Source of the DNA: an uncultured Candidatus Saccharibacteria bacterium | GTDB taxonomy: Bacteria > Patescibacteriota > Saccharimonadia > Saccharimonadales > Saccharimonadaceae | Assembly: GCA_945873065.1 (NCBI GenBank) | Contig: CAMCBN010000003.1 | Span: 5,166-69,165 of the forward strand | Reading direction: 5' to 3' | Length of the DNA stretch: 64,000 nucleotides | In this document: piece after piece, positions 15,565 through 45,057 of the stretch | Layout: each line of letters starts with the position of its first letter | Position numbering within the stretch: position 1 is the first letter of the stretch | Position numbers and translations under genes: made by a program | The notes under the pieces: generated by a model | The model's database searches: none | What the model saw: the letters and a program-made list of their open reading frames with translations, nothing else | Told to the model about the DNA's origin: nothing

Positions 15565-15606
15565 CCAAAACCTTACCCGATTTTGGCATCATTTTTGACA
15601 AAACCG

Positions 15607-15640
15607 TTGACTTTTTGTTCTATTATTGATACATATATCA
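15607..15640 (+). promoter_or_regulatory. Cassette-type promoter (TTGACT-N17-TACATA, extended -10)
   Basis: TTGACT 15607-15612, TGATACATATAT; very similar to 19524-19553 and 39396-39427. Confidence 0.6.
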
Positions 15641-15749
15641 GCTTTTGCAATCAGCGAGAGCCGACATCTCCTTCATAGCCATTGAAGTTGAGATGTGTCA
15701 TTTCGCGGAGAAATACGTTTTCTTCGCCCGACTCCATGAGGAGTTCATC

Positions 15750-16004
15750 ATGGCAAATCCGCAGACCGACCCTAACTTCGGCAACGGAGAGGTCGGAGGA
15801 GACAACAGCTGGATGTCGCCCGTCTACGGCACAACTGCCGACGGCGACCCGGTGACTGTCTCTTTCGGTCAGGGATCTCGCGACGGACATATCGGTATCG
15901 CCAGTGGTCACGTCAGTGGCTCTGAGTACTATAGCCCTGGCGGGCACGACCATTTCGGCCCGAATGGTGAGCCGTTCGGAGATCGCGGAGCCTACAACGG
16001 CTAG
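15750..16004 (+). CDS. Small Gly/Asp-rich orphan protein (84 aa)
   Basis: SD GAGGAG before ATG 15750; coherent composition; 3' part of the listed 119-aa ORF. Confidence 0.65.
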   Translation: MANPQTDPNFGNGEVGGDNSWMSPVYGTTADGDPVTVSFGQGSRDGHIGIASGHVSGSEYYSPGGHDHFGPNGEPFGDRGAYNG

Positions 16005-16006
16005 CC

Positions 16007-16039
16007 GTGTCAGTCCTGAGTATGACGCTAAACTGCTCA
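16007..16039 (+). ncRNA. Candidate H-type pseudoknot in 3' UTR
   Basis: S1 GTGTCA(16007-12)/TGACGC(16023-28); S2 TGAGTA(16017-22)/TGCTCA(16034-39); paired by eye. Confidence 0.5.
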
Positions 16040-16063
16040 CTTGCCTTGTAGTAATATATAATT

Positions 16064-16297
16064 ATGAAAGAAAAACTACTAGATCTAGCCGATTTACTGG
16101 CAAAACGAAACGACGCCGAAGGACTGACGCTTTTGCGCAATATTACGCTTGAGCTATTTTCTTCGGGGTATAAAGTTGAGGGTCTTAGTTTACTTGAGCT
16201 AAACGAATACATCGACGAGGCGCAAGCGGTGATAAAGGCTGGTAAAAGTTCAGAGGAAATCCTAACATCGCCGATTCGAAAACTTATCGATCAATAG
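16064..16297 (+). CDS. Hypothetical protein (77 aa)
   Basis: Helical protein-like ORF; TAATAT 6 nt upstream of ATG. Confidence 0.6.
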   Translation: MKEKLLDLADLLAKRNDAEGLTLLRNITLELFSSGYKVEGLSLLELNEYIDEAQAVIKAGKSSEEILTSPIRKLIDQ

Positions 16298-16385
16298 AGA
16301 TTCGTGAGCTGGTGGTACATCTTGTCGGTATTTATTGCTAGACGTAATGCACTATATGTTGATACAATTTGGCACAATAACAAAC

Positions 16386-16976
16386 ATGGACACTCCTCGC
16401 GCTACTCAGCTTGTACGTCAAGCGACGGCCGATTTTTGGCAAGAAAAAACAGCGGAGATTAACGATGTCGCTAGTTTGGAAAAATTTGTCAATGATTATC
16501 TTGCGCTTTTGGGATGTGAATATGATTTTGCGGTAGCGAAAGCTCTAACTCAACTGCGAACCAACAGTCTAGCCGCACCGTTAGCGGAAAAAGTCGCAAA
16601 AATTACACTGCTAGCAAACGAAATTTGTGCCAAACCACCCGCCGAAAAGCGCCGCACATTATGGCAGAATATAGCTACAATCACCAACTATGCCGAGCCA
16701 ATACTCGCCAGTCTCGCCATTAAACTTCAATCACGCAAAGATGTCGTGAACTATTTACAATCTACAATGGAACACTCGGTGCTTTGGCCTAAGAATGATG
16801 TCGCTTATAAGATCGTTAACGTTGCGGCTCATTACAATATCGACGAGAACGATCAACCATTGTACAAAGTGTGGGATTTAGCAACAGAGCTAGAAATAAT
16901 GCCACCTGGCGAAACTGTATTCGATGAAAAATGGCAAAGCTTGGCGTCTTTGGTTACTTCTCTAAAAAGATGTTAG
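16386..16976 (+). CDS. Hypothetical protein
   Basis: Long ORF; ATG 16386 preferred over TTG 16335; no motif recognised. Confidence 0.6.
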   Translation: MDTPRATQLVRQATADFWQEKTAEINDVASLEKFVNDYLALLGCEYDFAVAKALTQLRTNSLAAPLAEKVAKITLLANEICAKPPAEKRRTLWQNIATITNYAEPILASLAIKLQSRKDVVNYLQSTMEHSVLWPKNDVAYKIVNVAAHYNIDENDQPLYKVWDLATELEIMPPGETVFDEKWQSLASLVTSLKRC

Positions 16977-17023
16977 GGTGGACGAACTCTTCCGTCCACA
17001 TCACCTGTGTTATTATCAAATTA

Positions 17024-17929
17024 ATGAAACGACTTTTATTACTCAAGCAAACCAATTCTCCCGTCACAGCACATTTGTATGAGCATATGACGATGAACGC
17101 CCTGAAAAGGCTCGCTTGTAAGGCGGATCTTTTTAAGCAGATTGATTATTTTTTCCTTGGCACAAACTATACCAAAACGGGGCTTATAACTATCGATATT
17201 GACCTATATACAGATGAGTCAACCAGATTAGAAAAATCACTGCAAAATATAAAAACACCAATCACCGAAGAAACTATCCAGCTAGCTATGCAACAAATTG
17301 CTGCCGAAACCGAACAAATTATCGTCTGTGACGATGCGACCAAACTGAAGCATAGCCTTAACACCCTTAACGACAAAGCTTGGCAATCTCTTGAGACAGC
17401 GGACACCATAAATACGACCAACCATCTGTTCAAAAATGAAAACATAAAACAAGTCGACGAACCTGCGCTGACGGTCGATCACATTACGTATGCATTGACT
17501 GGAACGTTGCCGGATGACGACACACTGAAGCCGCTGTTTTATTACCTGACTAGCGCTATCCACAGCACAGTAGCAGATATTGCGAATCATCAACTCGGCT
17601 ATTACGAAACGAGTAGATCTTTTAGTTGTCATGGAAACCGCGCAATGTGCACTAATGAGTTTGCTGCAATGCGTCATCTTATTAATAATGTAGAGCTAGA
17701 AAGATCGTATCATAACATCATCGAAAAGATAATCAAACCAGCCAATCTATCTCGTATCATAGGGCGACTGAAGTCTTTCTCGTATACAAACGGAACTCTA
17801 GACACCCCAAACATTGATCTATTCGAAAAAAACGTTGGCGTAATTATTGGTCCAAAAATCTGGCAAAATCTAGCAGATGAAGGATTGATCACAAGGCTAT
17901 TGACTAACTTTAAACTTGAGCAAATATGA
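17024..17929 (+). CDS. Hypothetical protein with N-terminal HxxEH (M16 peptidase-like) motif
   Basis: TAHLYEHM near N-terminus; TATTAT 7 nt upstream of ATG 17024. Confidence 0.55.
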   Translation: MKRLLLLKQTNSPVTAHLYEHMTMNALKRLACKADLFKQIDYFFLGTNYTKTGLITIDIDLYTDESTRLEKSLQNIKTPITEETIQLAMQQIAAETEQIIVCDDATKLKHSLNTLNDKAWQSLETADTINTTNHLFKNENIKQVDEPALTVDHITYALTGTLPDDDTLKPLFYYLTSAIHSTVADIANHQLGYYETSRSFSCHGNRAMCTNEFAAMRHLINNVELERSYHNIIEKIIKPANLSRIIGRLKSFSYTNGTLDTPNIDLFEKNVGVIIGPKIWQNLADEGLITRLLTNFKLEQI

Positions 17930-18004
17930 CTAGCCTGATTAGTTCATAATACTGAAACAGAGCAAAAATAGCTAATCCTGCTATTTTCCTGTAAAATAAA
18001 ATAG

Positions 18005-19441
18005 ATGAAACTCTACAACACCCTGACGCGCCGCAAAGACGAACTGAAGCCGCTCGATGGCAATACCGTAAAAATATACACCTGCGGGCTGACAGTGTAC
18101 AGCCAGCCGCACATCGGCAATTGGGTCGGCTATATTTATTGGGACGCGTTGGTGCGTTTGCTGCGCCATCAGGGTTATAACGTGATTCGCACGCAGAACA
18201 TTACCGATGTTGGACACTTGACTAGCGACGACGATAATGGCGAGGATAAGATGGAGCAGGGCGCTCAGCGCGAGGGCAAAACTGCGTGGGATGTAGCCGA
18301 GAAATATATAGAAATCGCCGAGCGTGAGGCGTATGATGTTTTGAAATTAATTCGGCCAGATCATTTGGTGCGAGCGACGGATTACATCGACCAGCAAATT
18401 GCGTTTGCGCGCGAGCTAGAAGAAAAGGGATTTACCTATATCATCGACGGCGACGGACTGTATTTTGACACCAGTAAATTGGCAAACTACGGCGCGTTGG
18501 CGCGGCTGGATATCAACGGTCTAGAAGCCGGCGCACGGGTCAGCGTGGCAGGCAAAAAGAATATCACCGACTTTGCCGTCTGGAAATTTTCACCAACCAA
18601 CAAACGGCGCGACATGGAGTGGGACAGCCCGTGGGGCAAGGGCTTTCCAGGCTGGCATCTCGAGTGTTCGGTCATTGCCCGCGAAACCTTGGGCGACCAG
18701 ATCGACATTCACACTGGCGGTATCGACCACATCCCGGTGCACCACGTCAACGAAATCGCCCAGACAGAAAGCGTGACCGGCCAGCAATTTGCCCAGATGT
18801 GGCTGCACAATAATCACATCAAAGTAGACGGGCGCAAGATGAGCAAGTCGCTCGGCAATATTATTACGCTGGATGATATCACGGCGCGCGGCTTCGACCC
18901 GATGGCGTTCAAACTGGCGATTCTCAGCAAACACTACCAAACGGAGGGCAATTTTACCTGGGAGATTCTGGAAGCGGCGGCGGCGCGGCTGGACAATTGG
19001 CGCGGGCGTGCGGTACTGCGCTGGCAAACGCACGACACGTTGGTGGACGATGACGACAAGGATGAGCGCGAGGGCAGCGTATCGCTACTGGCGGCCAAGC
19101 AAGCGCTGATTGAACGATTGGCAGACGACCTGGATACGCCGGGCGCGCTGGCGCTGATTGACGAGAGCTTCAACCGGCTGGATCATGTCAGGCTGGAGCG
19201 AATTCACCGTGCGGCGCTGGTGGAATTTCTGGAGCTGATCGACGAACTGCTGGGATTGGAGCTATTGAATTCGACGCCGGATATTTCTGATGATGCTAAA
19301 CGAACGCTGCTGGCTCGGCAACGGGCGCGCGAAGATAAAGATTGGACGAGCGCCGACCAGCTGCGAGGAGAATTAGCAGAACAGGGAATTGCGGTGCGCG
19401 ACACACCGGGCGGGCAAATTTGGACGTACAACGCACAGTAA
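18005..19441 (+). CDS. cysS: Cysteine--tRNA ligase
   Basis: YTCGLTVY...HIGN, NITDVGH, PGWHLECS, DIHTGGIDH, KMSKS. Confidence 0.97.
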   Translation: MKLYNTLTRRKDELKPLDGNTVKIYTCGLTVYSQPHIGNWVGYIYWDALVRLLRHQGYNVIRTQNITDVGHLTSDDDNGEDKMEQGAQREGKTAWDVAEKYIEIAEREAYDVLKLIRPDHLVRATDYIDQQIAFARELEEKGFTYIIDGDGLYFDTSKLANYGALARLDINGLEAGARVSVAGKKNITDFAVWKFSPTNKRRDMEWDSPWGKGFPGWHLECSVIARETLGDQIDIHTGGIDHIPVHHVNEIAQTESVTGQQFAQMWLHNNHIKVDGRKMSKSLGNIITLDDITARGFDPMAFKLAILSKHYQTEGNFTWEILEAAAARLDNWRGRAVLRWQTHDTLVDDDDKDEREGSVSLLAAKQALIERLADDLDTPGALALIDESFNRLDHVRLERIHRAALVEFLELIDELLGLELLNSTPDISDDAKRTLLARQRAREDKDWTSADQLRGELAEQGIAVRDTPGGQIWTYNAQ

Positions 19442-19501
19442 TTTGAGCCCGAAGTGCCACTTTTTCATCAGGTTTTCCATTAAATCTCACCTCTGTTACA
19501 G

Positions 19502-19534
19502 CCAAAAGTCAATGCAAGAAGCATTGACTTTTGG
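19502..19534. repeat. Perfect 14-bp inverted repeat overlapping the -35 box of a cassette promoter
   Basis: CCAAAAGTCAATGC-aagaa-GCATTGACTTTTGG; right arm contains TTGACT (19524-29), with TGATACATATAC downstream. Confidence 0.85.
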
Positions 19535-19672
19535 TTTCAATATGATACATATACATTAGCCTTTTTGATAGATTTCAAAAATCTGTCAAGTGGCGCTTCG
19601 TCCTTGGAGCAGATCTCCAGGGGCTTGAGGTGCCAAAGGCTGGCACCTCTACATCGAAGAAAGGATAGCATT

Positions 19673-19963
19673 ATGTTTAATGCGTTTCTTTTCAGCGCAA
19701 TCGTTATGACTGCGACGCTCGTCTTTTTACTCCCCGTGACAATCTACAGGGTCGTTAAGGAGGAAAGACGGTGGCGCGAAGTTGCCGCTGGTTGGGGCTT
19801 TCTCGTAGCCCTTGGACTTGCAGCAATAGTACACGCATACGCCGCTATTGAGTGGCACACCGTTAGTGGAGTAGTGGCAATAGACGCCATCGGGCTAGTA
19901 CTAACATCAGTGGCACTGCCATTCCTCATCTTTGACTCGACGAACGAGAAGAGATGCAAATAG
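19673..19963 (+). CDS. Small orphan membrane protein (96 aa, ~3 TM)
   Basis: AAGGA SD before ATG 19673; three hydrophobic stretches; hairpin GAGGTGCCA/TGGCACCTC upstream. Confidence 0.65.
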   Translation: MFNAFLFSAIVMTATLVFLLPVTIYRVVKEERRWREVAAGWGFLVALGLAAIVHAYAAIEWHTVSGVVAIDAIGLVLTSVALPFLIFDSTNEKRCK

Positions 19964-19990
19964 GAGAAAGATGAGCTGACGTGCCTCGCC

Positions 19991-20090
19991 GCGCCCAGCT
20001 GGTGGGTGCAAAAAGCTAACTTCAGTTAGTAACCAGTAAAATCGCCTGAAACCCAGGCGTCCCCGCACGAAATGTGCGGGGTTATTCCTT
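19991..20090 (+). terminator. Array of four hairpins ending in a terminator-like stem
   Basis: GCGCCCA/TGGGTGC, CTAAC/GTTAG, CGCCTG/CAGGCG, CCCCGCAC/GTGCGGGG followed by TTATTCCTT. Confidence 0.65.
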
Positions 20091-20130
20091 TGTGGTTCAC
20101 CTCGCCTTAAGTCGTGTTATAATACAAGTT

Positions 20131-21261
20131 ATGAAGGTAAAGATAGAGATCGACACCAGAACTTTCGTGCGATTTTGGTTAGTAGTGATTGGTTTTGCAG
20201 CGATAATCTTGATGATTTACTTGGCACGTACAGCGCTATTTATTCTCGGCGCTTCCGGCTTTTTGGCTTTAGCGCTGAACGGTCCAGTCAATGCTATCGT
20301 CGAGCGCCTACCTAATCGTAGCCGCACATTGAGCACAGCATTAGCCTTTACAGCAATTGTAGCCATATTGGGGGTCGTGCTATTTCTAGTAGTACCGCCG
20401 ATAGTCGAGCAGACGACTAAATTTATCGACTCTTTGCCTAAGATGATCAATAACGCTGGCGAACAGTGGCGCGATTTCGGAACTTTTATTGAGCAATATC
20501 ACATAGAGGCTCAGGTCAACCAGGTGATTGATGGTCTTCGCAACAGCGCTGAGTCGTGGACGCGCAATTTTAGCAGCAACCTTATCTCTGGTATTGGCTC
20601 ATTCTTCTCTACGATAGCTTCAGTGTTTTTGGTCTTGGTATTAACTTTTTTGATGCTTACCGAAGGACCGGCCTGGGCAGAACGTTTTTGGGGGTTGTAT
20701 CGCGACCAAGCCAAGATGGAGCGCCACCAAAAATTAACCAAGCGTATGCATGCAGTAATCTCGGGTTACGTAGTGGGGCAACTGACCGTTTCTGGTATAG
20801 GTTCATTATTCGCCGGAGCAGCGGTTTTTATCCTGAGTTTATTCTTCACTGCTATTCCATCCAACTTAGCTTTGGTGACTATAGCTACTAGTTTCGTGCT
20901 ATCACTGATACCAATGTTTGGTGCGACTATCGCTGGAGTGTTGGTGTCATTGTTACTGGCGTTTAATGCTTTGCCTGGTGGTATTATTTTCGCTATTTTC
21001 TTTATCGTCTATCAGCAAATAGAAAATAACTTCATATCGCCAACTATTCAGTCGCGCAAGATTGAACTCACCCCTCTACTGGTACTTGCAGCAGTGACTG
21101 TTGGTTTATATATCTTTGGTATTTTAGGGGGGTTAGTCTCTATACCGGTCGCTGGCTGCTTAAAAGTTTTACTAGAAGATTACCTAGAATACTCACGTAA
21201 AGCCCGCGAGGAATCTACTAAGCCGCTCGCTAAATTAGCTAGCAAAATTCGTAAAGCCTAA
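20131..21261 (+). CDS. AI-2E (PerM-like) family transporter
   Basis: Polytopic; SLIPMFG, YQQIENNFISP, GILGGLVSIP; TATAAT 7 nt before ATG 20131. Confidence 0.9.
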   Translation: MKVKIEIDTRTFVRFWLVVIGFAAIILMIYLARTALFILGASGFLALALNGPVNAIVERLPNRSRTLSTALAFTAIVAILGVVLFLVVPPIVEQTTKFIDSLPKMINNAGEQWRDFGTFIEQYHIEAQVNQVIDGLRNSAESWTRNFSSNLISGIGSFFSTIASVFLVLVLTFLMLTEGPAWAERFWGLYRDQAKMERHQKLTKRMHAVISGYVVGQLTVSGIGSLFAGAAVFILSLFFTAIPSNLALVTIATSFVLSLIPMFGATIAGVLVSLLLAFNALPGGIIFAIFFIVYQQIENNFISPTIQSRKIELTPLLVLAAVTVGLYIFGILGGLVSIPVAGCLKVLLEDYLEYSRKAREESTKPLAKLASKIRKA

Positions 21262-21328
21262 AACCAAAACGCTCCATATTACACGAAATCTTCTCTCGAT
21301 GGAGCTAACATAGGTGTTTAGTGCAAAA

Positions 21329-21544
21329 CTACGTGAAATTGACCATTATACCCAGCAAAGTTATAGCGGTCGCAGCTAATACTGAAATAGCCACCATCAT
21401 ACGATTTGGGTAATAATCAACTTTGGTAGAGGTAGAGGTGTTAGTGACGTACTTACGAGTCTTTGTAGCTTCACGTTTGACACTCGACGTAGATTTAGTC
21501 GGTCGTTTTTGATTATTTAGGGTTTTCTTTTTCTTTACGCTCAT
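21329..21544 (-). CDS. Small basic protein with C-terminal TM helix
   Basis: MSVKKKK...YYPNRMMVAISVLAA; TATACT 6 nt before ATG 21544. Confidence 0.7.
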   Translation of the reverse strand: MSVKKKKTLNNQKRPTKSTSSVKREATKTRKYVTNTSTSTKVDYYPNRMMVAISVLAATAITLLGIMVNFT

Positions 21545-21568
21545 GCTTATAGTATACTGGGTATTAAG

Positions 21569-24100: not shown

Positions 24101-24180
24101 AATCTAATAAAGTCGGATGATATAGATCTTGTAACTATGCTAGCAGAAGGTCTTTTCCGTCACTTCGCTCAGTGTCGATC

Positions 24181-26235: not shown

Positions 26236-26321
26236 ATCTTCACCTTATCACACAGAGAAAAATCTTGATACACAAAAAAACACTCGAAGCATGAAACCTC
26301 GAGTGATATTAATCTCAGACT

Positions 26322-26396
26322 TGGCTGGGGTGGAGGGATTCGAACCCCCGAATGCTGGGACCAGAACCCAGTGCCTTACCACTTGGCGACACCCCA
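26322..26396 (-). tRNA. tRNA-Gln (anticodon CTG)
   Basis: Minus strand TGGGGTG...CTGGG-TTCTGGT-CCCAG...GGTTCGAATCC...CACCCCA-GCCA; CCA encoded. Confidence 0.97.
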
Positions 26397-26519
26397 TCGC
26401 TGTATGTACTCTAGCACGAACCGTAGATATTTTCAAGCGAACAAAGGCTAACTACCTCACTACCAAAAAAGATAGAGAGCCCTATGGGATCCGTCTTTTC
26501 CGGTTAATATATCTTCTCG

Positions 26520-27014: not shown

Positions 27015-27021
27015 ATAATTA

Positions 27022-27750: not shown

Positions 27751-27858
27751 ATGATTAGTGTAACAGAATCATAAGATAAATCAGTTACATCGAACAACCT
27801 TAAGAAATTTATCATTAGACTGGCACCGGCAAACACAAGCGTGTATACTAAAAATCGT

Positions 27859-30006: not shown

Positions 30007-30054
30007 CAGCATATCATTTGAATGCAGCCTCTGCTATGCAGTATACTCATTGAT

Positions 30055-31530: not shown

Positions 31531-31543
31531 ACTACTCACAAAC

Positions 31544-33034: not shown

Positions 33035-33122
33035 GGCTAAATTATACCATAAGCATAATTGTCAACGTAAACAATATCGATATCGACACCACGAGAAGGG
33101 AAGAGGGTTCTACCTTGAGAGG

Positions 33123-35489: not shown

Positions 35490-35979
35490 CAGCCACCTCC
35501 ACTTGATGATAATTACATTTTGCGGCTACCCGCCAACCGCTACGTGAGTCGCTATCAGCTTGGTAAATATAGCCATCTTTTACCTCAGATATCCGCACCA
35601 AGGCTGGACTGTATGGTGCCAAAGTGCGATAAAATACTATATCACGATCGGTCACCCGACTAAACCCAGGAAACATCTTTTTGAACTTTTGCCGGCCAAA
35701 CTCATCGAAATAATCGGGCTGACCTTTTGGCGGGAAGAACTTTGCTGGACGTAACCCGATACGCGTGACAAGCTTTTTCACATCGCTCAGTAATAATCGT
35801 GATGGACCATAAATACAACAATACAACTGCCCATCATCCGCAAAAAACACTGTTGCTCGTGCTGACAATCCAGCCGCAATATTATGGGCGACCATCTTAT
35901 CGATCGTCAACTGCACCCCGAAGCGTACCATCAGCAAACGCTGCATCCGTACTGTGTCGAAATTACCAGAGATATCCAT
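35482..35979 (-). CDS. Hypothetical protein
   Basis: 165-aa ORF, TATACT 6 nt before ATG, overlaps next gene start. Confidence 0.75.
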   Translation of the reverse strand: MDISGNFDTVRMQRLLMVRFGVQLTIDKMVAHNIAAGLSARATVFFADDGQLYCCIYGPSRLLLSDVKKLVTRIGLRPAKFFPPKGQPDYFDEFGRQKFKKMFPGFSRVTDRDIVFYRTLAPYSPALVRISEVKDGYIYQADSDSRSGWRVAAKCNYHQVEVADA

Positions 35980-36043
35980 ACAACAAGTATAACAAAGTCA
36001 CGAGAGGACGGCGAGAGAAGGTAGTGTGAGTTATACTGGAGGT

Positions 36044-39000
36044 ATGACTGATTTTTCTACTCGCTATTCGCACCTCAATACTCACCAGCGCCAAGCTGTA
36101 GATGACATCGATGGGCCGCTGCTTGTTATCGCTGGACCAGGCACTGGCAAGACTGAATTGCTGAGTATGCGCACCGCTAACATCCTCCGTCAGACTGATA
36201 CGCTACCCGAAAATATTCTCTGTCTTACTTTCACCGAAAGTGGTGCGATGGCTATGCGTCAACGGTTGCGTAGTATTATCGGAGCAGATGCTTACCGCGT
36301 AGCAATACATACTTTTCATAGTTTTGGTAGCGAAGTTATCAACCAATATCGCGAATATTTTTATCATGGCGCCCAAGTAGAGCCGATCGACGAGCTAGGT
36401 ACGTTAGCTATTTTAGATGATATCTTTCAACAACTCGATCATCGTAATCCACTCAGCAGTAAACAAGGCGAGAAATACACCTATCTGCGCGATACTAGCC
36501 GTAGCATTAGCGAACTCAAGCAGGCCGGTCTCAGCCGCAAAGAATTACTGCGCGTCATAGAGGCAGACGAAGCTTTGCTGGATGAAGTAGAGCCAGCTCT
36601 GACGGAGGTTTTCGCCAATCGCATCACTAAACAAATAGCCGGCAAGCTAGCCCCAATAGCCGGTCAGGCTGCACAGCTATCCTTGCCAAGCCTACCGCCA
36701 GCCATCCCGCCACTGGCTGATAGCTTTTCGCTCAGCCTAGCGCGAGCGATCGACGAGTCGCTAGCTAGCGACAAGACCACGCCGATCACCGCTTGGCGTA
36801 ATCATTGGCTTGAAAAAAACAACACTGGCGATTACATAATGAAGGACCGCAAGCGCCTAGCGAAGCTGCGCGCCCTTGCCGATATTTACCAATCTTACTT
36901 AGACATATTGACCGAAAATTGCCTAATCGATTACGATGATATGATCTTCGAGCTAGTCCAAGCTATGCAGTCTCAGCCCGAACTACGCTACAATTTACAA
37001 GAGCGCTATCAATACATCATGGTGGATGAGTTTCAAGACACTAATCTAGCTCAGTTACGCATCCTTTTCGCCCTGACTGATAATCCAGTCCATGAAGGCA
37101 AGCCAAATATAATGGCAGTCGGCGATGACGATCAAGCGATTTATAGTTTTCAAGGAGCCGATGTAGGTAATATTCATCGTTTCCGCCAGCAATATCGCCA
37201 AGTCAAACTGATAGCATTGACGGACAATTATCGCTCTAGCCCAGCGATCTTGGCGGCAGCTCGCTCGGTCATTACTCAGGGCAGTGACCGGCTCGAAGCG
37301 GTAGTAAACGAGCTAGATAAAACTCTATCGGCTCATCATATGCCCGAGTACAGCACGGTACAGCTACACCAGCTACCTAGCACTATCGCCGAACGACACT
37401 GGCTAGTTCAGCAAATTCGCCAACAAATTAGCAGTGGTATACCAGCTGAAGATATTGCTGTCATCGCCAGACGACACAGCGAGCTGACAGCGTTAGTGCC
37501 ATACCTACAGGCAGCGGACATCAAGGTCAACTACGAGCGACGCAATAATATCCTGGATCTACCGATCATTCGACTCATCGATCTCATCATGAGGCTACTT
37601 TGTGCCATCGCTGATGGTGATATAGGATTAGTCGACAGTTTATTGCCTCAATTGCTAGCCCAACCAGCCCTAGGTTTTGATAGCCAAGATGTCTGGAAAC
37701 TCAGCTTGCGAGCATGGCGCAATCATCAGAGTTGGACAGAGGCAATGATGGCGACAACTACCTTCCGTCCACTGATCATCTGGCTAATTGAGCTAGCTCA
37801 GCAATCACAAACTACGCCTTTCGAGCTCATCATTGACCGCATTATCGGTGCACCCGAACAGCCCACTGACGATGCGCACCAAGCAAACCAACCAGTTGAC
37901 AGTGAGCCATTGTATGTTTCACCTATTTACCAATATTATTTCTCGCCAGAGAAGATCCAGCAAAAACCCGACAGCTACATCACCCACTTAGAGGCATTGC
38001 GCACATTCCGCCAACACCTAGTCGACAACATTGGTAGCTGGTCGTTTTTTAGCCTACGTGAAGCATTAAGTTTTCTCGATATGCATTATGGATTCAATCT
38101 ACCGATCACCAGTATCCAGCTGCGAGCCGAGACCAACCGCGACCACATCAACCTAATGACCGCCCACAAAGCCAAAGGCTTAGAATTTCCACATGTTTAC
38201 ATCTGTGGTGCCACCGACAACGCCTGGGGGCGCACCGTACGATCACCGCAGCGTGTCATAAACTACCCCGATAACTTAACCATCGCGCCAGCAGGCTCTA
38301 GCTACGACGAACGCCTACGACTATTCTTCGTCGCCATGACTCGCGCCAAGGACACACTACATATTAGCTATAGTCAACAAAATGACGCTGGGCGAGCTAC
38401 TTTGCCAGCTAGTTTTCTTGAAGCGACAGAGCTATCAGCCGAGATAGTAGACAGCAATGATTCCATAGCCAGTATCAGCCAACAACTTACCACCGACTGG
38501 CGTGGACACTTCGCCGAATCAAATTCACCAGAGTTACGGCAACTACTCCAACCGCTACTTGAACAGTATAAATTATCCGCTACCGACCTAACCACCTTCC
38601 TCGACGTGGTCCACGGCGGGCCAACGACTTTTTTGGTCAATAATCTGCTACACTTTCCACGCGAGCGTAGCGCTTACGCTCTATACGGTACCACCATTCA
38701 CCACGTGTTACAGAGGGCACATTCACACCTTTCTGCCACCGGCAACACTCGCCCCACCGAGGACATATTGGGTGATTTTCAATACGAAATGCAACGACAG
38801 CCGCTTGATGATAATAAACGTGCTTATTTCACGAAGAAGGGGCTAGATTCACTCAGCGTCTTTTTGCAGCAACAAAGCGATACTTTTCGTCCCGATCAAA
38901 AAACCGAGCTATCCTTTGCGAGCCAGGGTGTTGTCTTGAGCGAAGTGCGGCTAACTGGTACACTCGACCTTGTTGACATTGACTCTAACAGAGGTACTAT

Positions 39001-39367
39001 CACTGTCACCGATTACAAAACCGGCCGCCCCGTCACATCCTGGCAGGGTCACGATGACTACACCAAATATAAGCTTCATCGTTATAAGCAACAGTTGATG
39101 TTCTACGAGCTGCTGGTACGTCATTCACGTGATTACACCCGTTACGAATTCACCGAAGCACGGCTACAATTTGTCGAACCCGACCAAGAAGGGCAAATTC
39201 ACCAGCTGACTGCACATTTCAGTGAAGCAGATCTAACCGAGTTTGCTCGATTACTCACCGTAGTATGGCGGCATATCATGGCATTAGATATGCCAGATAT
39301 CAGTGGTTATTCTGCAGACTATAAAGGTATGCAGGCCTTCGAACAAGACCTCATAAAAGAATACTAA
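36044..39367 (+). CDS. UvrD/PcrA-like helicase with C-terminal PD-(D/E)XK nuclease domain
   Basis: AGPGTGKT, LTFT, VDEFQD, VGDDDQAIYSFQGA, NYRS, TAHKAKGLEF, FVAMTRAK; C-terminal GTLDLVD...TDYKTG. Confidence 0.93.
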   Translation: MTDFSTRYSHLNTHQRQAVDDIDGPLLVIAGPGTGKTELLSMRTANILRQTDTLPENILCLTFTESGAMAMRQRLRSIIGADAYRVAIHTFHSFGSEVINQYREYFYHGAQVEPIDELGTLAILDDIFQQLDHRNPLSSKQGEKYTYLRDTSRSISELKQAGLSRKELLRVIEADEALLDEVEPALTEVFANRITKQIAGKLAPIAGQAAQLSLPSLPPAIPPLADSFSLSLARAIDESLASDKTTPITAWRNHWLEKNNTGDYIMKDRKRLAKLRALADIYQSYLDILTENCLIDYDDMIFELVQAMQSQPELRYNLQERYQYIMVDEFQDTNLAQLRILFALTDNPVHEGKPNIMAVGDDDQAIYSFQGADVGNIHRFRQQYRQVKLIALTDNYRSSPAILAAARSVITQGSDRLEAVVNELDKTLSAHHMPEYSTVQLHQLPSTIAERHWLVQQIRQQISSGIPAEDIAVIARRHSELTALVPYLQAADIKVNYERRNNILDLPIIRLIDLIMRLLCAIADGDIGLVDSLLPQLLAQPALGFDSQDVWKLSLRAWRNHQSWTEAMMATTTFRPLIIWLIELAQQSQTTPFELIIDRIIGAPEQPTDDAHQANQPVDSEPLYVSPIYQYYFSPEKIQQKPDSYITHLEALRTFRQHLVDNIGSWSFFSLREALSFLDMHYGFNLPITSIQLRAETNRDHINLMTAHKAKGLEFPHVYICGATDNAWGRTVRSPQRVINYPDNLTIAPAGSSYDERLRLFFVAMTRAKDTLHISYSQQNDAGRATLPASFLEATELSAEIVDSNDSIASISQQLTTDWRGHFAESNSPELRQLLQPLLEQYKLSATDLTTFLDVVHGGPTTFLVNNLLHFPRERSAYALYGTTIHHVLQRAHSHLSATGNTRPTEDILGDFQYEMQRQPLDDNKRAYFTKKGLDSLSVFLQQQSDTFRPDQKTELSFASQGVVLSEVRLTGTLDLVDIDSNRGTITVTDYKTGRPVTSWQGHDDYTKYKLHRYKQQLMFYELLVRHSRDYTRYEFTEARLQFVEPDQEGQIHQLTAHFSEADLTEFARLLTVVWRHIMALDMPDISGYSADYKGMQAFEQDLIKEY

Positions 39368-39395
39368 CTGCGAGCCATAGCACTTCTATGCGAGC

Positions 39396-39427
39396 TTGAT
39401 TCTTTATTCGTATAGTGATATAAATAT
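39396..39427 (+). promoter_or_regulatory. Cassette-type promoter (TTGATT-N17-TATAAA, extended -10)
   Basis: TTGATT 39396-39401; TGATATAAATAT; resembles 15607 and 19524 promoters. Confidence 0.6.
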
Positions 39428-39586
39428 TAATAGCTCTATGAGCGGACTCTGACCTTGCGCCAGATGCGCGAGATCCCGGAAGCGCTCTGCACGAGAGCGT
39501 TTTTTGGAGAGGGATTCGCCGACAACCGCCGTCCGGGAGATTCCCGGTCGGCCGCCGCAACTCGCGGCAGAAAGGGGGTGATCCCC

Positions 39587-39739
39587 ATGAGTTGTAACCC
39601 ATGTACCCGCATGGGCTACTCGGGCACGAAGACGTGCCCTAGTTGTCGAGGGACGGGCAAAAAGTCCCTCGGGTACCGTTGCGATAACTGCAACGGTACT
39701 GGGCAGGTCTGCCTCCAGTGCGGAGGCAAAAATGCCTGA
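39587..39739 (+). CDS. 50-aa Cys-rich small protein with DnaJ-type zinc-finger repeats
   Basis: CNPC, CPSCRGTG, CDNCNGTG, CLQCGG; strong SD AAGGGGGTGAT 39572-39582. Confidence 0.8.
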   Translation: MSCNPCTRMGYSGTKTCPSCRGTGKKSLGYRCDNCNGTGQVCLQCGGKNA

Positions 39740-39860
39740 TTAAATTTTTTGACGGTGCGGGTCGTGCCCCCGCAACCCGCTGAGCCTCGAGCTCAGCAAC
39801 AGGGCGTCCGTCCGCCCCTGGTACGATTCGCCAGCTGGTTAAATCCGGAAAAGAATCACT

Positions 39861-39929
39861 GGGCGTGCATGGTGAAGGCAGAGTCCTAGAGACTCATAAG
39901 CCTCACGGGTTCGACTCCCGTCGCGTCCA
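39861..39929 (+). other. Degenerate tRNA-like element (Met/CAT-like loop, broken anticodon stem)
   Basis: Acceptor GGGCGTG/CGCGTCC + A; T-arm ACGGG-TTCGACT-CCCGT; CTCATAA loop present; only 69 nt, no encoded CCA. Confidence 0.7.
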
Positions 39930-40035
39930 CTGGAGATGGTGCAATGACGCATCGTCTTCTCAGGTGACTCGCGAGATTCACTCGTGAAAGTAACCCTACC
40001 AGGATACTCTCGAGCAGAGCCGCTTGAGTCACCAC

Positions 40036-40075
40036 CCCCCTACCTCAATGACGAGGTAGGGGGCTTTTCCTTTTT
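40036..40075 (+). terminator. Intrinsic terminator
   Basis: CCCCCTACCTC-aatgac-GAGGTAGGGGG followed by CTTTTCCTTTTT. Confidence 0.85.
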
Positions 40076-40097
40076 GTGCTACAATTAACTAACAGAT

Positions 40098-41174
40098 ATG
40101 AGTTCGTTTTGGAATGACCTGCCGCAGCCGTTTTTCGTCCTGGCGCCGATGGAGGCTGTCACTGATGTAGTGTTTCGCCAGGTTGTCAGGCGGGCAGGCG
40201 CACCGGATATCTTTTTCACGGAGTTTGCTAATGCTACTGGCTGGGTGCACGCTGGTGATAAGGCCATCGCTGGGCGGCTGATCAAAACCGACGATGAACA
40301 CCCGCTGGTGGCGCAAATTTGGGGTGGCGAGCCAGGCGATATGGAGCAATTTGCGCGCCACTGCCGAGAGCTTGGTTTTGATGGGATCGATATCAACATG
40401 GGTTGCCCGGCCAAAAGCGCTATCAAATCGGGCGGGGCGGCGCTTATCCGGAGGCCAGACGTCGCAGTGGCAGCAATTCGCGCCGCCAAAACCGCCGGGC
40501 TGCCAGTCAGCGTTAAAACACGTCTAGGTTACACGTATGCCGATGAATGGCGCGATTGGCTGCGGGTACTGCTCGAGCAAGACATCGTCAACTTAACGAT
40601 CCACCTGCGCACGAAAAGGGAGATGAGCAAGGTGCCGGCGCATTATGAACTCATCGACGAAATTGTCGCGCTGCGCGATGAAGTCGCACCCCAGACACTA
40701 CTGACTATCAACGGCGATATTCGCGACCGCGCGCACGGCCTGGAACTCGCCGCTCAGCACCCCGGCATAAACGGCATCATGATAGGCCGCGGCGTATTTC
40801 ATGATCCGTTTTGCTTTTCGAAATCTGCGAGCGGTATCGCTGAAAAAAATCTGGGCGCGAAGCCGGGACCCGGATTATTTTTCAGTGACACCCGAACAGA
40901 TAGAGAGCTGACGGGGCTTGATGCGCCCGTCACAGCCTCCTCGACAGAGGATATGTCCACTCCTCACAGAGCCGAACTCCTTGAACTGCTCCGCTATCAC
41001 CTCGACCTCTTTGATGAATACCAACCTGTTCTCGAACGCCCCTTCGAAACCCTGAAAAGATTTTTCAAAATCTACATCCGTGACTTCGATGGCGCTAAAG
41101 AGTTGCGCGATCAACTGATGCACACCAGGACAACTGACGAAGCGCGACACGTTTTGCGAAGCGGTAGGTTATAG
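40098..41174 (+). CDS. tRNA-dihydrouridine synthase (Dus family) with in-frame palindromic insertion
   Basis: LAPMEAVTD, FTEF, DINMGCP, VSVKTRLG, TIHLRT, INGDI, GIMIGRG. Confidence 0.93.
   Translation: MSSFWNDLPQPFFVLAPMEAVTDVVFRQVVRRAGAPDIFFTEFANATGWVHAGDKAIAGRLIKTDDEHPLVAQIWGGEPGDMEQFARHCRELGFDGIDINMGCPAKSAIKSGGAALIRRPDVAVAAIRAAKTAGLPVSVKTRLGYTYADEWRDWLRVLLEQDIVNLTIHLRTKREMSKVPAHYELIDEIVALRDEVAPQTLLTINGDIRDRAHGLELAAQHPGINGIMIGRGVFHDPFCFSKSASGIAEKNLGAKPGPGLFFSDTRTDRELTGLDAPVTASSTEDMSTPHRAELLELLRYHLDLFDEYQPVLERPFETLKRFFKIYIRDFDGAKELRDQLMHTRTTDEARHVLRSGRL
40833..40932 (+). repeat. In-frame palindromic element in dus (GCGAAGC apex)
   Basis: Imperfect long stem 40833-40855/40869-40892 with GCGAAGC 40857-40863 in the loop; second hairpin TGACGGG/CCCGTCA 40909-40932. 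Confidence 0.8.
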
Positions 41175-41228
41175 TGGATTTTGAATTTCATTGTTGCCTT
41201 CATTGATTATTTGTGATCTAATGTATAT

Positions 41229-42074
41229 ATGGTGTATATTGAACGTTGGCCGACCAGCTTCATTGACCCGCAGACAGCCCAAGAAGGGTTAATGCCTGCT
41301 CTAAATAATCTACCAGAGGGGCATATTTTGTTGGTATCAGACCAAACAAAAGATATATCTGGTGTAGCCCAAGAAGTCACATTCGCCGAGCGCCCCGATT
41401 ACGAACAGGGCCGAGAACACAGTATGCACGAAGTTCATTTCGCTGATATGTCAGCCATAGGCAAGGACGACTCTACACTATCTGTACAGCCTGTTGCTAT
41501 CAAGCCGTATCCAAAGAGTTGGCCGTGGCTAGCCGAGCACGATTATGTTATTAGCAAAAAACTTAACGATCAGCACAACCGACAGATTGCTTACTCGACT
41601 ATCGGCTTCACTCGTTGGCACGGAATAGTCAGCAGCCTCACGCAATTCGAACAGGGCGTCACTAGTTGCGATAATCTACTATGGAAAGGTGAGAAACACC
41701 CCACCACACCTGAAGACATTCGACTAGCTCTAGGCGTGGCCGCTCAGACTTTGGTATTTTTGCATGATCTAGGCATGGTTCATGGTGATTTCGCTGTTCG
41801 CAATACTGCTTATGACTCGACTATGCAGTTCCGCGTCATTGACGTGACGACCACGCACCCAGACAAAACCCCAGACGAATTTTGTAGCGACATCTCTGCG
41901 TACATCGAGTCTATATCTGATCATACATGGGGGAACTCTGCTGTCAACAACCAACAGATAGCCGAATTATTCCTCGCCCCCTACAGAAAGACCGCTCCAG
42001 ACATCCTACCGAAATCTGCTCGTCTAGACATCACGAGATATGTCGACGCATTGATGCGCCATTACGATAAATAA
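41229..42074 (+). CDS. Hypothetical protein with protein-kinase-like catalytic motifs
   Basis: VAIKPY, LHDLGMVHGDFAVRN, VIDV resemble kinase subdomains II, VIb, VII. Confidence 0.6.
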   Translation: MVYIERWPTSFIDPQTAQEGLMPALNNLPEGHILLVSDQTKDISGVAQEVTFAERPDYEQGREHSMHEVHFADMSAIGKDDSTLSVQPVAIKPYPKSWPWLAEHDYVISKKLNDQHNRQIAYSTIGFTRWHGIVSSLTQFEQGVTSCDNLLWKGEKHPTTPEDIRLALGVAAQTLVFLHDLGMVHGDFAVRNTAYDSTMQFRVIDVTTTHPDKTPDEFCSDISAYIESISDHTWGNSAVNNQQIAELFLAPYRKTAPDILPKSARLDITRYVDALMRHYDK

Positions 42075-42210
42075 GACTCCAGGACAGTACAAAAGCGCCT
42101 CCGGGCATTATTCGGCAAATCTGACCGTTCCGTTCTAAGGCAACCATCAGTGCACACCCCGATAACACCTCGTGCAGTAGGTATATTGTCGAAGATACAT
42201 CATGACCAGA

Positions 42211-42636
42211 TCACTGGCGGCGATGTCGTCGTCGCAAATTGGCTACCTGCAAACGCACCTTGTGGCGATCGACTAGCTGATGAGCTTTCTCTAGCTCGAC
42301 TTGATCGCTAGCGTTATCGCGTTGCTGCAAAGCTCGCTCAAGTGCTGCCTGACTTTCTGCCTCAATGATATCATCACCATGCTCGGCCTCGTCTACTAGA
42401 ATACGAACGCGCTTTTGGTCAATCTCGACTACACCACCACTGATAGCGAAAAATTCCAATCTGTCATCACTGTCGCCCTTATCATGGCGTACTGTCACCA
42501 CGCCAGGCACAGCTAATGTCACTAATGCTTCGTGACTAGGGAAGATCGATATCTCACCCTCGGGTGTCGGCAACATTACCTCATAGACTGTCTCGTGTAA
42601 TTTACTACCAGTGAGTGTGACTAGTTCTAATTCCAT
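42211..42636 (-). CDS. atpC: F1Fo ATP synthase epsilon subunit
   Basis: LPTPEGEISIFPSHEALVT, ISGGVVEI, ILVDEAE; own -10 (TATAGT) 6 nt before ATG. Confidence 0.93.
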   Translation of the reverse strand: MELELVTLTGSKLHETVYEVMLPTPEGEISIFPSHEALVTLAVPGVVTVRHDKGDSDDRLEFFAISGGVVEIDQKRVRILVDEAEHGDDIIEAESQAALERALQQRDNASDQVELEKAHQLVDRHKVRLQVANLRRRHRRQ

Positions 42637-42968
42637 GCTCCTACTATAGCAGAGGTGAGGCGAAAAAGCGAGGTGTTTTACCGGAGCAGATTCCCTAATC
42701 TACAAGTGTTATCACGACATAGCTAGTTTCGGAAAAGCGATAATTTTCTCGTATATGTTGAAAACCAGAGACATATGGCGGCGACACAGAACTCGTGCCA
42801 TACGCCCAGTGCTTTGGTGTCATAACAGGCCCAGCCTCGAATATAATGGACATTCTACGTAACGCGCCAACCCATTCCACTGCGACAAGGACCTAACATT
42901 TTTAGCTGGCGCTATGCAGGAAATCATGCGTAAGCTAAACGATGACACCGAAGAATAGATAATGAAAG

Positions 42969-43014
42969 CGGGGCGGGGAGCAATAGATGAACAGTTATCG
43001 CTCGACCCGCCCCG
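42969..43014 (-). terminator. GC-rich hairpin closing the 43044-43373 cassette
   Basis: CGGGGCGGG/CCCGCCCCG 9-bp stem plus inner GAGC/GCTC; TTTCATT follows on minus strand. Confidence 0.6.
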
Positions 43015-43043
43015 AGTGGTGGGGGAGATACCTGTACGCTAAG

Positions 43044-43373
43044 CTATAGAGCCAAGCCCCAGGCTAGCAGGGACACAAAGATCCCTATGGCAGCAGCTAC
43101 CGAGATCAGTAACATACCGATGGTTTGGGGTAGTTTTGCCGCCCCGAGTATGACTACTCCAAATAGTAGCCACACGACGTACATAACGAGCCAAGGTAGG
43201 TCGCTACGTGAAAATCCCGTTCCGCCGAAGTGAAACAGAATCAGCCAGCTCCCGAGTGGTACACCAGCCCAGGAGAAAACCCTAATCACCCAGAAGGGCA
43301 TGATTTTCACCCTTCTCTGAGTGAAAGAACGCATGGAGCGGGTATCCCATGCGTTCTTTTCATCATCTCGCAT
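43044..43373 (-). CDS. Small orphan membrane protein (109 aa, ~3 TM)
   Basis: Perfect SD AAAGGAGGTGAT; TTGACA-N17-AACACT upstream (43466-43438); hydrophobic helices. Confidence 0.75.
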   Translation of the reverse strand: MRDDEKNAWDTRSMRSFTQRRVKIMPFWVIRVFSWAGVPLGSWLILFHFGGTGFSRSDLPWLVMYVVWLLFGVVILGAAKLPQTIGMLLISVAAAIGIFVSLLAWGLAL

Positions 43374-43487
43374 GTGATCACCTCCTTTACGCGTATTCTA
43401 AATGGGCGACTTTCACCCGAATACCCCACCAACTGTAAGTGTTGCACGGCTCGTAATAATTGTCAAAGGTTCGCCACGGTATATCCA

Positions 43488-43554: not shown

Positions 43555-44934
<1,380 letters not shown>

Positions 44935-45057
44935 TTATTCCTCCTTCTTTCCGGCGAACGATCCATACACTCATACCAATTCTGTTGTGTTTATAACGAG
45001 GGTAACACTCACCCGACCCCTGTTATTAACGTCTCCTTTATCTGCTACTATTTTACA

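Follow-up and report, generated by a model that had tools for sequence, protein, structure and literature searches.

Introduction

Phage morons, in the concept of Juhala and Hendrix, are autonomous units of promoter, open reading frame (ORF) and terminator that lie between genes adjacent in related phages. Here we describe self-contained units in a cellular genome, that of an uncultured Candidatus Saccharibacteria bacterium (assembly of 853,655 bp in six contigs, G+C content 0.47), within a stretch of 64,000 nucleotides (nt; C3:5166-69165) that we call the window. A first-pass annotation had proposed that four loci in the window, here numbered 1 to 4, are mini-cassettes of shared architecture, each with a promoter, a folded leader, a Shine-Dalgarno site, one small ORF (ORF84, ORF96, ORF50 and ORF109, named after their lengths in amino acids, aa) and a GC-rich 3' structure. 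Our comparisons with congeners indicate that loci 1–3 are probably members of a family of small-ORF expression units, modular, monocistronic and specific to the genus, whose ORFs are exchanged, most likely by homologous recombination, and that locus 4 is not a member of this promoter family.

Like morons, the units are self-contained and occur between genes adjacent in relatives (a DHH-family gene and cysS; atpD and atpC), and their cargo, of unknown function and frequently small, differs among close relatives. Unlike morons, they reside in the chromosome of a cellular organism, without phage genes nearby, and one conserved promoter module is common to them, the ORF being swapped inside a fixed promoter/leader/3' frame. 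In integron cassettes, too, single-ORF cargo is exchanged within a constant expression context, and this cargo is highly diverse and largely uncharacterised in function; however, our units have no adjacent integrase, each has its own promoter, and they are dispersed one per slot rather than arrayed. An attC-like element was not seen at their 3' ends, though no formal attC model was run. Type I toxin-antitoxin systems (Hok/Sok, Ibs/Sib, AapA/IsoA) share with them multi-copy small hydrophobic ORFs and long folded leaders that hide the ribosome-binding site, whereas the ORFs here are longer, unrelated in sequence, soluble in some cases and not accompanied by an evident antisense RNA gene.

Two classes of structured RNA are also close. 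The same promoter module drives leaders of the RAGATH-10 class in congeners, the leaders in the window likewise pair the Shine-Dalgarno sequence, and a hammerhead-like ribozyme marks the 3' boundary of one RAGATH-10 slot; the leaders of loci 1–3, in contrast, are different, undescribed structures. For most RAGATH motifs the function is unknown (PMC11061315). MALAT1/mascRNA, the tRNA-like 3' ends of plant viruses and the corresponding domain of transfer-messenger RNA (tmRNA) resemble locus 3, which has a co-transcribed mimic of an acceptor stem and T arm 3' of its ORF, but here the mimic belongs to a bacterial chromosomal mRNA, and its middle is a freely varying hairpin. In the literature we found no description of the promoter-unit family as such, and nothing on tRNA-like elements or small membrane proteins of Saccharibacteria, or on RAGATH-10.

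Such units are of interest because one 50-nt promoter model can pick out 3–11 highly expressed small proteins per genome, with the variable part delimited to the codon. In reduced, host-dependent bacteria with genomes below 1 Mb, regulators are few and orphan small proteins numerous. The units show how such a genome keeps a variable set of small proteins, and they yield a short list of testable candidates for factors in the epibiotic lifestyle or in conflict with phages or competitors. Promoter, leader and 3' module together form a natural expression platform for genetic tools in these organisms. In addition, RAGATH-10, a hammerhead-like ribozyme and a tRNA-like element appear in one modular context, which suggests a role in framing or processing small-gene transcripts.

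A promoter shared by loci 1–3

The three promoter strings quoted in the first-pass annotation were recovered exactly: TTGACT-N14-TGATACATATAT at locus 1 (15607-15638), TTGACT-N13-TGATACATATAC at locus 2 (19524-19554) and TTGATT-N14-TGATATAAATAT at locus 3 (39396-39427). They align with one another, and a regular expression covering all three has exactly three matches in the whole genome, namely these loci. The generic upstream motif of this genome, enriched before ~500 long ORFs, is TGnTATAAT or TGnTATACT, an extended -10 element without a conserved -35; the shared promoter of loci 1–3 is different from it.

We built a promoter profile from loci 1–3 and four homologous promoters of relatives, and also made it into a covariance model (R1). 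Searching the whole genome with nhmmer returned locus 1 (E 3e-9), locus 3 (E 1.9e-7) and locus 2 (E 1.4e-5), the next best site reaching only E ~1 (C1:263100-263054). The covariance model scored 39.8 bits at locus 1 and 30.6 bits at locus 2. It had matches in 46 of 61 congeners, with 2–11 sites per genome, and zero in one subclade of the genus. Outside the genus, a single weak match was obtained among 100 genomes of 88 other genera in the order, indicating that the model does not merely detect strong AT-rich promoters.

The consensus over 43 copies begins with an A-rich or ATTTT-N5-AAAAT tract immediately 5' of the -35 element, followed by CTTGAC, a spacer whose last bases are TATTG or TAGTG, ATATATATAT with a varying number of TA repeats, and yAGCTTTTG. 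From TTGAC to TTTTG, the promoter of locus 1 and that of the slot orthologous to locus 3 in congener G018 are identical at 36 of 41 positions, although the housekeeping proteins flanking those promoters are only ~73% identical between the two genomes. At locus 3, the promoter is kept at the orthologous slot in congeners.

The simplest alternative would be coincidence, with loci 1–3 being a few near-consensus strong promoters in an arrangement that any monocistronic gene would have. Promoter, leader, Shine-Dalgarno site, ORF and terminator would indeed fit any small gene, and locus 4 fits in this generic sense only. However, the spacer and first transcribed bases are common beyond the hexamers (as in the 36/41 match above), the model finds nothing in 99 of the 100 genomes of related genera, and among 40 promoter copies that we fetched from six congeners, none lies directly 5' of a recognisable housekeeping gene. 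Coincidence is thereby refuted for loci 1–3, and we give it almost no credence.

A weak fourth copy of the promoter was seen outside the window (C1:263100-262600, minus strand; TTGATT-N17-TGATATATATC) ahead of a predicted lipoprotein of 135 aa, with a Shine-Dalgarno-pairing hairpin and a strong terminator. We also considered TGATACATATA as a dispersed motif and rejected it, its three other copies in the genome lying inside coding sequence with no -35 element.

Structured leaders and diverse small proteins

Downstream of the promoter, loci 1–3 have folded leaders with z scores of -4.05, -6.46 and -3.82, respectively, against shuffled sequence. In the leader of locus 1 (type A), the last hairpin, GACUCC/GGAGUU, sequesters the Shine-Dalgarno sequence (GAGGAG, 15738-15743). 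The predicted fold at locus 2 pairs both the AAAGGA Shine-Dalgarno sequence and the AUG, while at locus 3 a GGGG/CCCC hairpin pairs the Shine-Dalgarno sequence with bases directly before the AUG. Covariation in these regions, which the first-pass annotation had suggested looking for, supports the structures at locus 1 (compensatory changes in 14 of 36 pairs of a consensus from eight homologous leaders) and at locus 3 (21 of 38 pairs, seven orthologous leaders); for locus 2 only near-identical homologues exist. The leader of locus 1 has no match in Rfam.

Leaders of the copies fetched from congeners are 45–210 nt long and fall into several types. Type A, which includes locus 1, precedes ORF84, a distant relative of ORF84, a Cys-rich basic protein of 65 aa and a protein of 152 aa, so that near-identical leaders of ~110 nt are joined to unrelated ORFs. 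Type B is RAGATH-10 (RF03147), with scores of up to 93.2 bits (Table 1); here the Shine-Dalgarno sequence, GAGGAG, is paired within the outer helix. A search of 25 congeners found this motif in 13, and across 41 genomes of the order it is nearly restricted to the genus. No RAGATH-10 at or above 41.2 bits was found in the four loci, the window or the whole genome studied here. Type C is a simple hairpin ahead of small membrane proteins, and the leader of locus 3 constitutes a fourth type.

Most of the 40 fetched copies have a small ORF with a Shine-Dalgarno site downstream, a few automatic calls being doubtful. The 39 scorable cargo proteins form 29 sequence families with a median length of 88 aa, and at least one transmembrane segment is predicted in 24 of them. 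They include mini zinc-finger proteins, membrane proteins of two to four helices and the Gly/Asp/His-rich ORF84 family.

The four ORFs of the window have the sizes, positions and Shine-Dalgarno sites given in the first-pass annotation and are, as it stated, mutually unrelated. Searches of Pfam, PHROGs, NCBIfam and PADLOC with them gave nothing usable: the only PHROG match had 17 bits, and PADLOC had no match at the loci. ORF84 has 19 homologue clusters and no family match in the searched databases; the ratio of non-synonymous to synonymous substitution rates (dN/dS) is 0.07-0.19, showing that it is under purifying selection. It has no predicted transmembrane segment, and its AlphaFold2 model was unusable, with a predicted local distance difference test score of 44. 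For ORF96, with three predicted transmembrane segments, there is a single homologue cluster at 94% identity, at the level of the same species. ORF50 has no predicted transmembrane segment; among the fetched congeners it has one homologue, in G023 (57% identity), plus two metagenome clusters, with no usable synonymous divergence. A weak match of ORF50 to RtpA, the anti-TRAP zinc protein of 53 aa that belongs to the DnaJ cysteine-rich type, reaches 19 bits (cut-off 65) and is probably explained by the common CxxCxGxG repeats.

Small hydrophobic cargo behind leaders that hide the Shine-Dalgarno sequence raises the question of a type I toxin-antitoxin-like system, in which the mRNA of a small hydrophobic toxin would be silenced by antisense RNA and be present in multiple, variable copies. 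The transmembrane segments predicted in 24 of 39 cargo ORFs, the pairing of the Shine-Dalgarno sequence in every leader type and the several copies per genome would suit this; yet the cargo is mostly 60–140 aa long with 2–4 helices, longer than classical toxins, and includes soluble proteins (ORF84, zinc fingers) and a lipoprotein. Measured against a hydrophobic toxin of roughly 60 aa or less, the ORFs of the window, at 84, 96, 50 and 109 aa and with ORF84 and ORF50 lacking transmembrane segments, do not conform. Furthermore, no antisense promoter-like site was seen in the four loci, except for the palindromic AT-rich promoter region of locus 1, PADLOC has no matches, and loci 1 and 3 yield abundant mRNA (see below). 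We consider such a system improbable.

Transcription of loci 1 and 3

Assembled contigs of a metatranscriptome (run X6) cover two of the loci. One of 317 nt spans 15690-16006 at locus 1 (99.7% identity, depth 11.2), and one of 418 nt spans 39545-39943 at locus 3 (depth 9.25); the latter, a single RNA, runs from the end of the leader through ORF50 and the 3' block and across the tRNA-like element. The flanking genes of both loci have depths at or near zero, and other X6 contigs matching the window at 95% identity or more (34 kb over 1-14500 and 44500-64000, including the atp operon) have depths of 2.2–8.1. Loci 1 and 3 are thus the best-represented transcripts of the window in X6, as a strong promoter would predict.

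The first-pass annotation had named three things that would speak against the family: a promoter motif generic across the genome, vertical conservation with known homologues, and lack of transcription. None of these was encountered in full; the motif is non-generic, the ORFs have no known homologues, and two loci are transcribed.

Replacement of open reading frames at orthologous slots

Comparison of syntenic sites demonstrated both presence or absence and swapping of cassettes, as the first-pass annotation had proposed to look for. In six comparisons of orthologous slots, the upstream flank and promoter, and sometimes the leader, align at 74–95% identity, followed by 220–670 nt without similarity, after which the alignment returns at 77–98% identity. 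The 3' breakpoints lie at the stop codon or a few bases beyond it, and the 5' breakpoints range from +5 to ~+90. One 3' hairpin module (AACATAGCTCACTAAACCATGTCTCAA...) closes different slots.

The clearest case of replacement was seen at the slot of locus 3, which we compared between four close relatives (G001, G009, G012 and G023) whose flanks are 80–87% identical. Similarity stops at most 3 nt from the start codon and returns 5–30 nt past the stop, and the four genomes carry four mutually unrelated ORFs between these points. Across 16 genomes the slot holds at least nine ORF types, among them several zinc-finger mini-proteins rich in Cys and a family designated 'AVQxG', which is under purifying selection (dN/dS 0.25-0.40) and whose distribution ignores the species relationships implied by atpC identity. 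The slot is filled in every fetched congener; locus 3 represents not an insertion but a slot kept throughout the genus.

At the 3' boundary of another slot, exactly where homology resumes, we found an element resembling a type III hammerhead ribozyme in three genomes (L078:868-935, L080:644-710 and L100:589-655; G010, G018 and G050). The core (UC, CUGAUGAG, CGAAA) is complete and all three stems pair, stem I differing between G010 and G018 with pairing kept; L078:873-915 scores 28.6 bits (E 8e-4) against a gathering score of 48.5.

Locus 1 differs in kind. It is the first gene of a strain-specific insert of 2.4 kb that comprises ORF84, orf77, orf213 and orf332, in a place where the DHH-family gene and cysS are 8–57 nt apart in most relatives. 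Its 3' element moves with the ORF84 cassette, being kept in L061 and in L087 (82% over 33 nt). An orf77-like gene (dN/dS of orf77, 0.22) adjoins ORF84 in L061–L063. Two metagenome contigs have ORF84 at the same site with the same promoter and leader and an orf77-like gene next, and then different genes. A third places ORF84 between secY and infA, beside an orf77-like gene, behind a different promoter, indicating that the promoter does not move with the ORF.

These results bear on how the units came to differ. The first-pass annotation had suggested insertion of single cassettes by a common recombination route. The former does not agree with loci 1 and 3, a multigene insert and a genus-wide slot, and for a dedicated route we found neither target-site repeats nor evidence of a recombinase; its statement that no integrase lies nearby was borne out, as the sole tyrosine recombinase match of the genome (PF00589) is on another contig (C1:72725-73261). 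If promoter-ORF units were inserted at defined sites by a site-specific system, be it integron-like or a small mobile element, this would explain their insertion between genes adjacent in relatives, the conserved unit ends and the second site of the ORF84 family between secY and infA. We nevertheless regard it as very unlikely, given this single distant recombinase match, the lack of direct repeats flanking the units, a promoter of its own in each unit, unlike integron cassettes, and the different promoter ahead of the secY-infA copy of ORF84.

A more serious contender, though still an unlikely one, is a regulon and nothing more: the promoters would share a regulator site or an optimal contact with RNA polymerase, and the differing ORFs would reflect ordinary gain and loss in spacers. 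In its favour, a palindrome ATTTT-N5-AAAAT lies just 5' of the -35 element in many copies, in G012 nine of ten promoter copies lie on one strand of one contig, and the leaders differ and the 5' breakpoints vary. On the other hand, breakpoints at the start codon and just past the stop in four close species, a 3' module common to different slots, and near-identical ~110-nt leaders on unrelated ORFs all point to a precision above that of random turnover.

Proposed organisation of the units and route of exchange

Taken together, our data favour a family of modular units, each of which would consist of four parts. The first is a strongly conserved promoter of the sigma-70 type with an A/T-rich upstream tract (often ATTTTTGACAAAA) and a -35 element TTGACa; the extended -10 TG closes its 17-nt spacer, and a -10 region of (TA)n precedes the first transcribed block, AGCUUUUG, which is likewise conserved. 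A tract resembling an UP element, a consensus -35, optimal spacing and an extended -10 would make this promoter strong, and it may carry a regulator site. The second part is one of several structured leaders, with a 5'-proximal hairpin first and a Shine-Dalgarno-pairing helix last; the hairpin may stabilise the mRNA and the helix may damp or gate translation. Such a leader behind the conserved promoter probably means high transcription with gated or damped translation. The third part is the exchangeable small ORF, and the fourth a structured 3' module: a terminator, the tRNA-like element of locus 3, or the hammerhead-like ribozyme in a slot of relatives. The tRNA-like element, if cut by RNase P or RNase Z, and the hammerhead-like ribozyme could define transcript ends by cleavage.

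The units lie in spacers between conserved housekeeping genes, and in close relatives a different ORF takes the place precisely from the start codon to shortly beyond the stop. We favour homologous recombination after DNA uptake, mediated by the conserved modules at the two ends of a unit or by the flanking genes and without a dedicated recombinase, because the genome encodes ComEC and an AddA-like enzyme, has only one, distant, tyrosine recombinase match, shows no repeats flanking the units, and is mosaic in this region. The mosaic is visible around locus 2, where the block from cysS to a gene for a SulP-family sulfate permease (24181-26235) is 98% identical to contig L065, while the upstream recR and DHH-family gene are only 83–88% identical to it and the DHH-cysS spacer is unrelated. 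This block appears clearly to be a recombination mosaic on sequence comparison. In addition, the gene for the AI-2E transporter is inverted with respect to all fetched congeners and, as a side observation, the cysS here is nearer to those of other genera (65% identity) than to those of its nearest congeners (57%); together with the L065 block, these features of 18005-24500 look like a mosaic of recombination or transfer.

A more far-reaching version, which we put forward tentatively and hold to be less likely than the modular family as such, is a recombinase-free cassette system. Portable promoter/leader and 3' RNA modules would then serve both as expression signals and as homology arms, and a population pool of small membrane and zinc-finger proteins would be shuffled through the slots under diversifying selection by the host bacterium, competitors or phages. 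If this were true, RAGATH-10 and some bacterial hammerheads would gain a context as the 5' and 3' ends of units.

Several points weigh against the interpretation as a family of exchangeable units. The family is at its poorest in the genome studied here, with three clear promoter copies and a weak one against up to 11 in relatives, and a bound regulator, instead of common descent, could account for the strong conservation of the spacer and the start block. Start sites and promoter activity are predictions, as is the translation of ORF96 and ORF50, and the dN/dS of ORF96 (0.45) is uninformative, being based on 12 substitutions only. The RNA evidence comes from one metatranscriptome in the form of assembled contigs, in which depth is a crude measure of expression and loci 2 and 4 are uncovered. 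Homologous recombination is the most likely route of exchange, but the five points that fit it are no proof. Finally, same-species metagenome contigs break near module boundaries without an alternative cassette. Contigs of four DNA runs from pig gut or manure that cover 39310-40095 end repeatedly near 39592, 39763-39777, 39856 and 40063-40095, where, respectively, ORF50 starts, its stop codon has just been passed, the tRNA-like element has its 5' edge and the terminator lies. Breaks of this kind could arise from strain variation at the module boundaries and are suggestive, but do not amount to evidence.

A tRNA-like element downstream of ORF50

Beyond ORF50, locus 3 continues into a 3' RNA block with 69–79% identity to seven congeners, in which a hairpin stem shows paired deletions in the X6 RNA contig. 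It is followed by a tRNA-like element in which a variable hairpin replaces the D and anticodon arms. In 15 congeners the acceptor stem occurs in six sequences, all with 6–7 of 7 pairs, and the T arm is kept in 12 scorable elements, while the middle part, of 27–61 nt, is unalike between congeners. Neither ARAGORN nor the Rfam tRNA model at its gathering score calls the element a tRNA. Against the tmRNA model, only its two ends align, with 34 nt between them, at 26 bits (gathering score 47).

Two other identities were considered. ARAGORN called 43 tRNA genes in the genome, with no tRNA-His and no tmRNA, and locus 3 was therefore suspected to be the tmRNA gene; this was rejected, as the Rfam model places the tmRNA at C1:55939-56342 (80 bits). 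An undetected tRNA-His or an amber suppressor was rejected in turn, there being no consistent anticodon loop across congeners.

As a separate observation, the AddA-Dus spacer of G014 (L032:1400-2340) has three tandem tRNA-like elements at spacer positions 600-864. The last forms a complete cloverleaf, is called tRNA-Pyl(CUA) by ARAGORN and has an anticodon that reads amber; in G020, its orthologue has the anticodon GCC and an extra arm of 25 nt.

Locus 4 and the 3' ends of the loci

Locus 4 has no match to the promoter model. Its best promoter candidate is poor (TTGACA at 43466-43461, then AACACT), and its leader is not significantly structured (z -1.02), although ORF109 has a strong Shine-Dalgarno sequence, AAAGGAGGTGAT (43388-43377). 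The shared architecture that the first-pass annotation ascribed to four loci thus stands for loci 1–3, with their promoters and folded leaders, and lapses at locus 4; the same division applies to its proposal of a family of autonomous small-protein units, which for loci 1–3 is supported, with probable co-regulation and cassette swapping, and accords with the 2–11 promoter copies in 46 of 61 congeners. Its idea of effectors directed at the host bacterium or at phage is speculative.

Locus 4 is instead a clade-specific gene for a small membrane protein in another variable slot, the atpD-atpC spacer, without the promoter module, and is probably read with or after atpD. Homologues of ORF109 (59–64% identity, dN/dS 0.09-0.38) occur only in the nearest clade, and just four representative proteins match at E <= 0.001; in one of these, a protein of 4681 aa, the match is due to chance and covers 29 residues. 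The distance from atpD to atpC is 918 nt here as against 7–14 nt in nine other fetched congeners. Other small membrane ORFs lie in this spacer in G004, G020 and G022, and the spacer is thus also a variable slot. A common origin of these ORFs was rejected: those of G004 and G022 are related to each other (E 1e-6 to 1e-8), but none is detectably related to ORF109.

The GC-rich 3' structures of the first-pass annotation were recovered in part. Loci 2 and 3 have terminator-like hairpins (20061-20081 and 40036-40063), whereas the terminator scan found no canonical terminator at the 3' element of locus 1. The hairpin 3' of ORF109 was left uncalled because its loop exceeds 8 nt.

Genomic setting

The loci are interspersed with housekeeping genes (recR, the DHH-family gene, cysS, addA, dus and the atp operon), and pig-gut metagenome runs carry the window sequence too. 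In size and gene content the genome is in keeping with reduced bacteria that depend on a host. Coordinates are collected in Table 1.

Table 1 Features of the four loci and related elements (window positions unless a contig is named; promoter elements and start sites are predicted)
Feature	Position	Strand	Description
Locus 1, upstream flank	14575-15564		DHH-family gene
Locus 1, promoter module	15590..15647	+	Upstream A/T palindrome CATTTTTGACAAAA at 15590-15603; sigma-70 type; -35 TTGACT 15607-15612; spacer 17 nt; extended -10 TG 15627-15628; -10 TACATA 15630-15635
Locus 1, conserved start block	15640-15647	+	AGCTTTTG; putative start site
Locus 1, leader	15640..15749	+	Type A; four hairpins: 5'-terminal, long, third, GACUCC/GGAGUU
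ORF84	15750..16004	+	84 aa; Gly/Asp/His-rich soluble small protein; invariant GHDH(F/Y)GP motif
Locus 1, 3' element	16005..16045	+	GTCCTGAG..CTGCTCAC
Remainder of strain-specific insert	16064..17929	+	orf77 (16064-16297), orf213, orf332; low GC, 0.39-0.43
Locus 1 downstream and locus 2 upstream flank	18005-19441		cysS
Locus 2, promoter module	19502..19565	+	Inverted repeat CCAAAAGTCAATGC / GCATTGACTTTTGG (19502-19515 / 19521-19534) enclosing the -35; sigma-70 type; -35 TTGACT 19524-19529; spacer 16 nt; extended -10 TG 19543-19544; -10 TACATA 19546-19551; putative start ~19558
Locus 2, leader	19558..19672	+	5' hairpin and two GC-rich hairpins
ORF96	19673..19963	+	96 aa; predicted three-helix small membrane protein; orphan
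Locus 2, 3' structures	19964..20090	+	End is an intrinsic terminator, 20061-20081, with T run (terminator scan)
Locus 2, downstream flank	20074-21261		AI-2E-family transporter
Locus 3, upstream flank	36026-39367		AddA-like helicase-nuclease
Locus 3, promoter module	39396..39439	+	Sigma-70 type; -35 TTGATT 39396-39401; spacer 17 nt; extended -10 TG 39416-39417; -10 TATAAA 39419-39424; putative start ~39432
Locus 3, leader	39432..39586	+	Long-range helix; GCAC-loop hairpin GCGCUCU-GCAC-GAGAGCG; further hairpins
ORF50	39587..39739	+	50 aa; Cys-rich CxxCxGxG mini zinc-finger protein; DnaJ cysteine-rich-domain / anti-TRAP-like motif
Locus 3, conserved 3' RNA block	39750..39860	+	Hairpins GCGGGTCGTGCCCCCGC and GCTGAG..CTCAGC, then AACAGGGCGTCCGTCCGCCC
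tRNA-like element	39861..39932	+	7-bp acceptor stem with G3:U70; T arm CGGG-UUCGACU-CCCG; CCA not encoded
Locus 3, terminator	40036..40063	+	11-bp stem and T run (terminator scan); kept in congeners; dus promoter directly after
Locus 3, downstream flank	40098-41174		dus
Locus 4, downstream flank	42211-42636	-	atpC
GC-rich hairpin 3' of ORF109	42960..43020	-	GGGGCGGG ... CCCCGCCCC then GCTTTC; terminator-like, long loop
ORF109	43044..43373	-	109 aa; three-helix small membrane protein between atpD and atpC
Locus 4, upstream flank	43555-44934	-	atpD
RAGATH-10 leader, relative	L078:306-390		93.2 bits
RAGATH-10 leader, relative	L082:303-387		91.0 bits
RAGATH-10 leader, relative	L069:801-890	-	77.2 bits
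RAGATH-10 leader, relative	L068:822-901	-	58.4 bits

The spacer between dus and atpC appears to be a further variable slot. It holds an ORF of 281 aa (41229-42074, plus strand) that is otherwise present only in G010 (38% identity) and has a weak match to Bud32-like kinases (24 bits against a cut-off of 125). In one subclade (G006, G013, G014, G017 and G021), the cysS match is split in two around residues 209-212 (for example, L054:2059-3711) within a longer open frame of 506–567 aa, which suggests an in-frame insertion.

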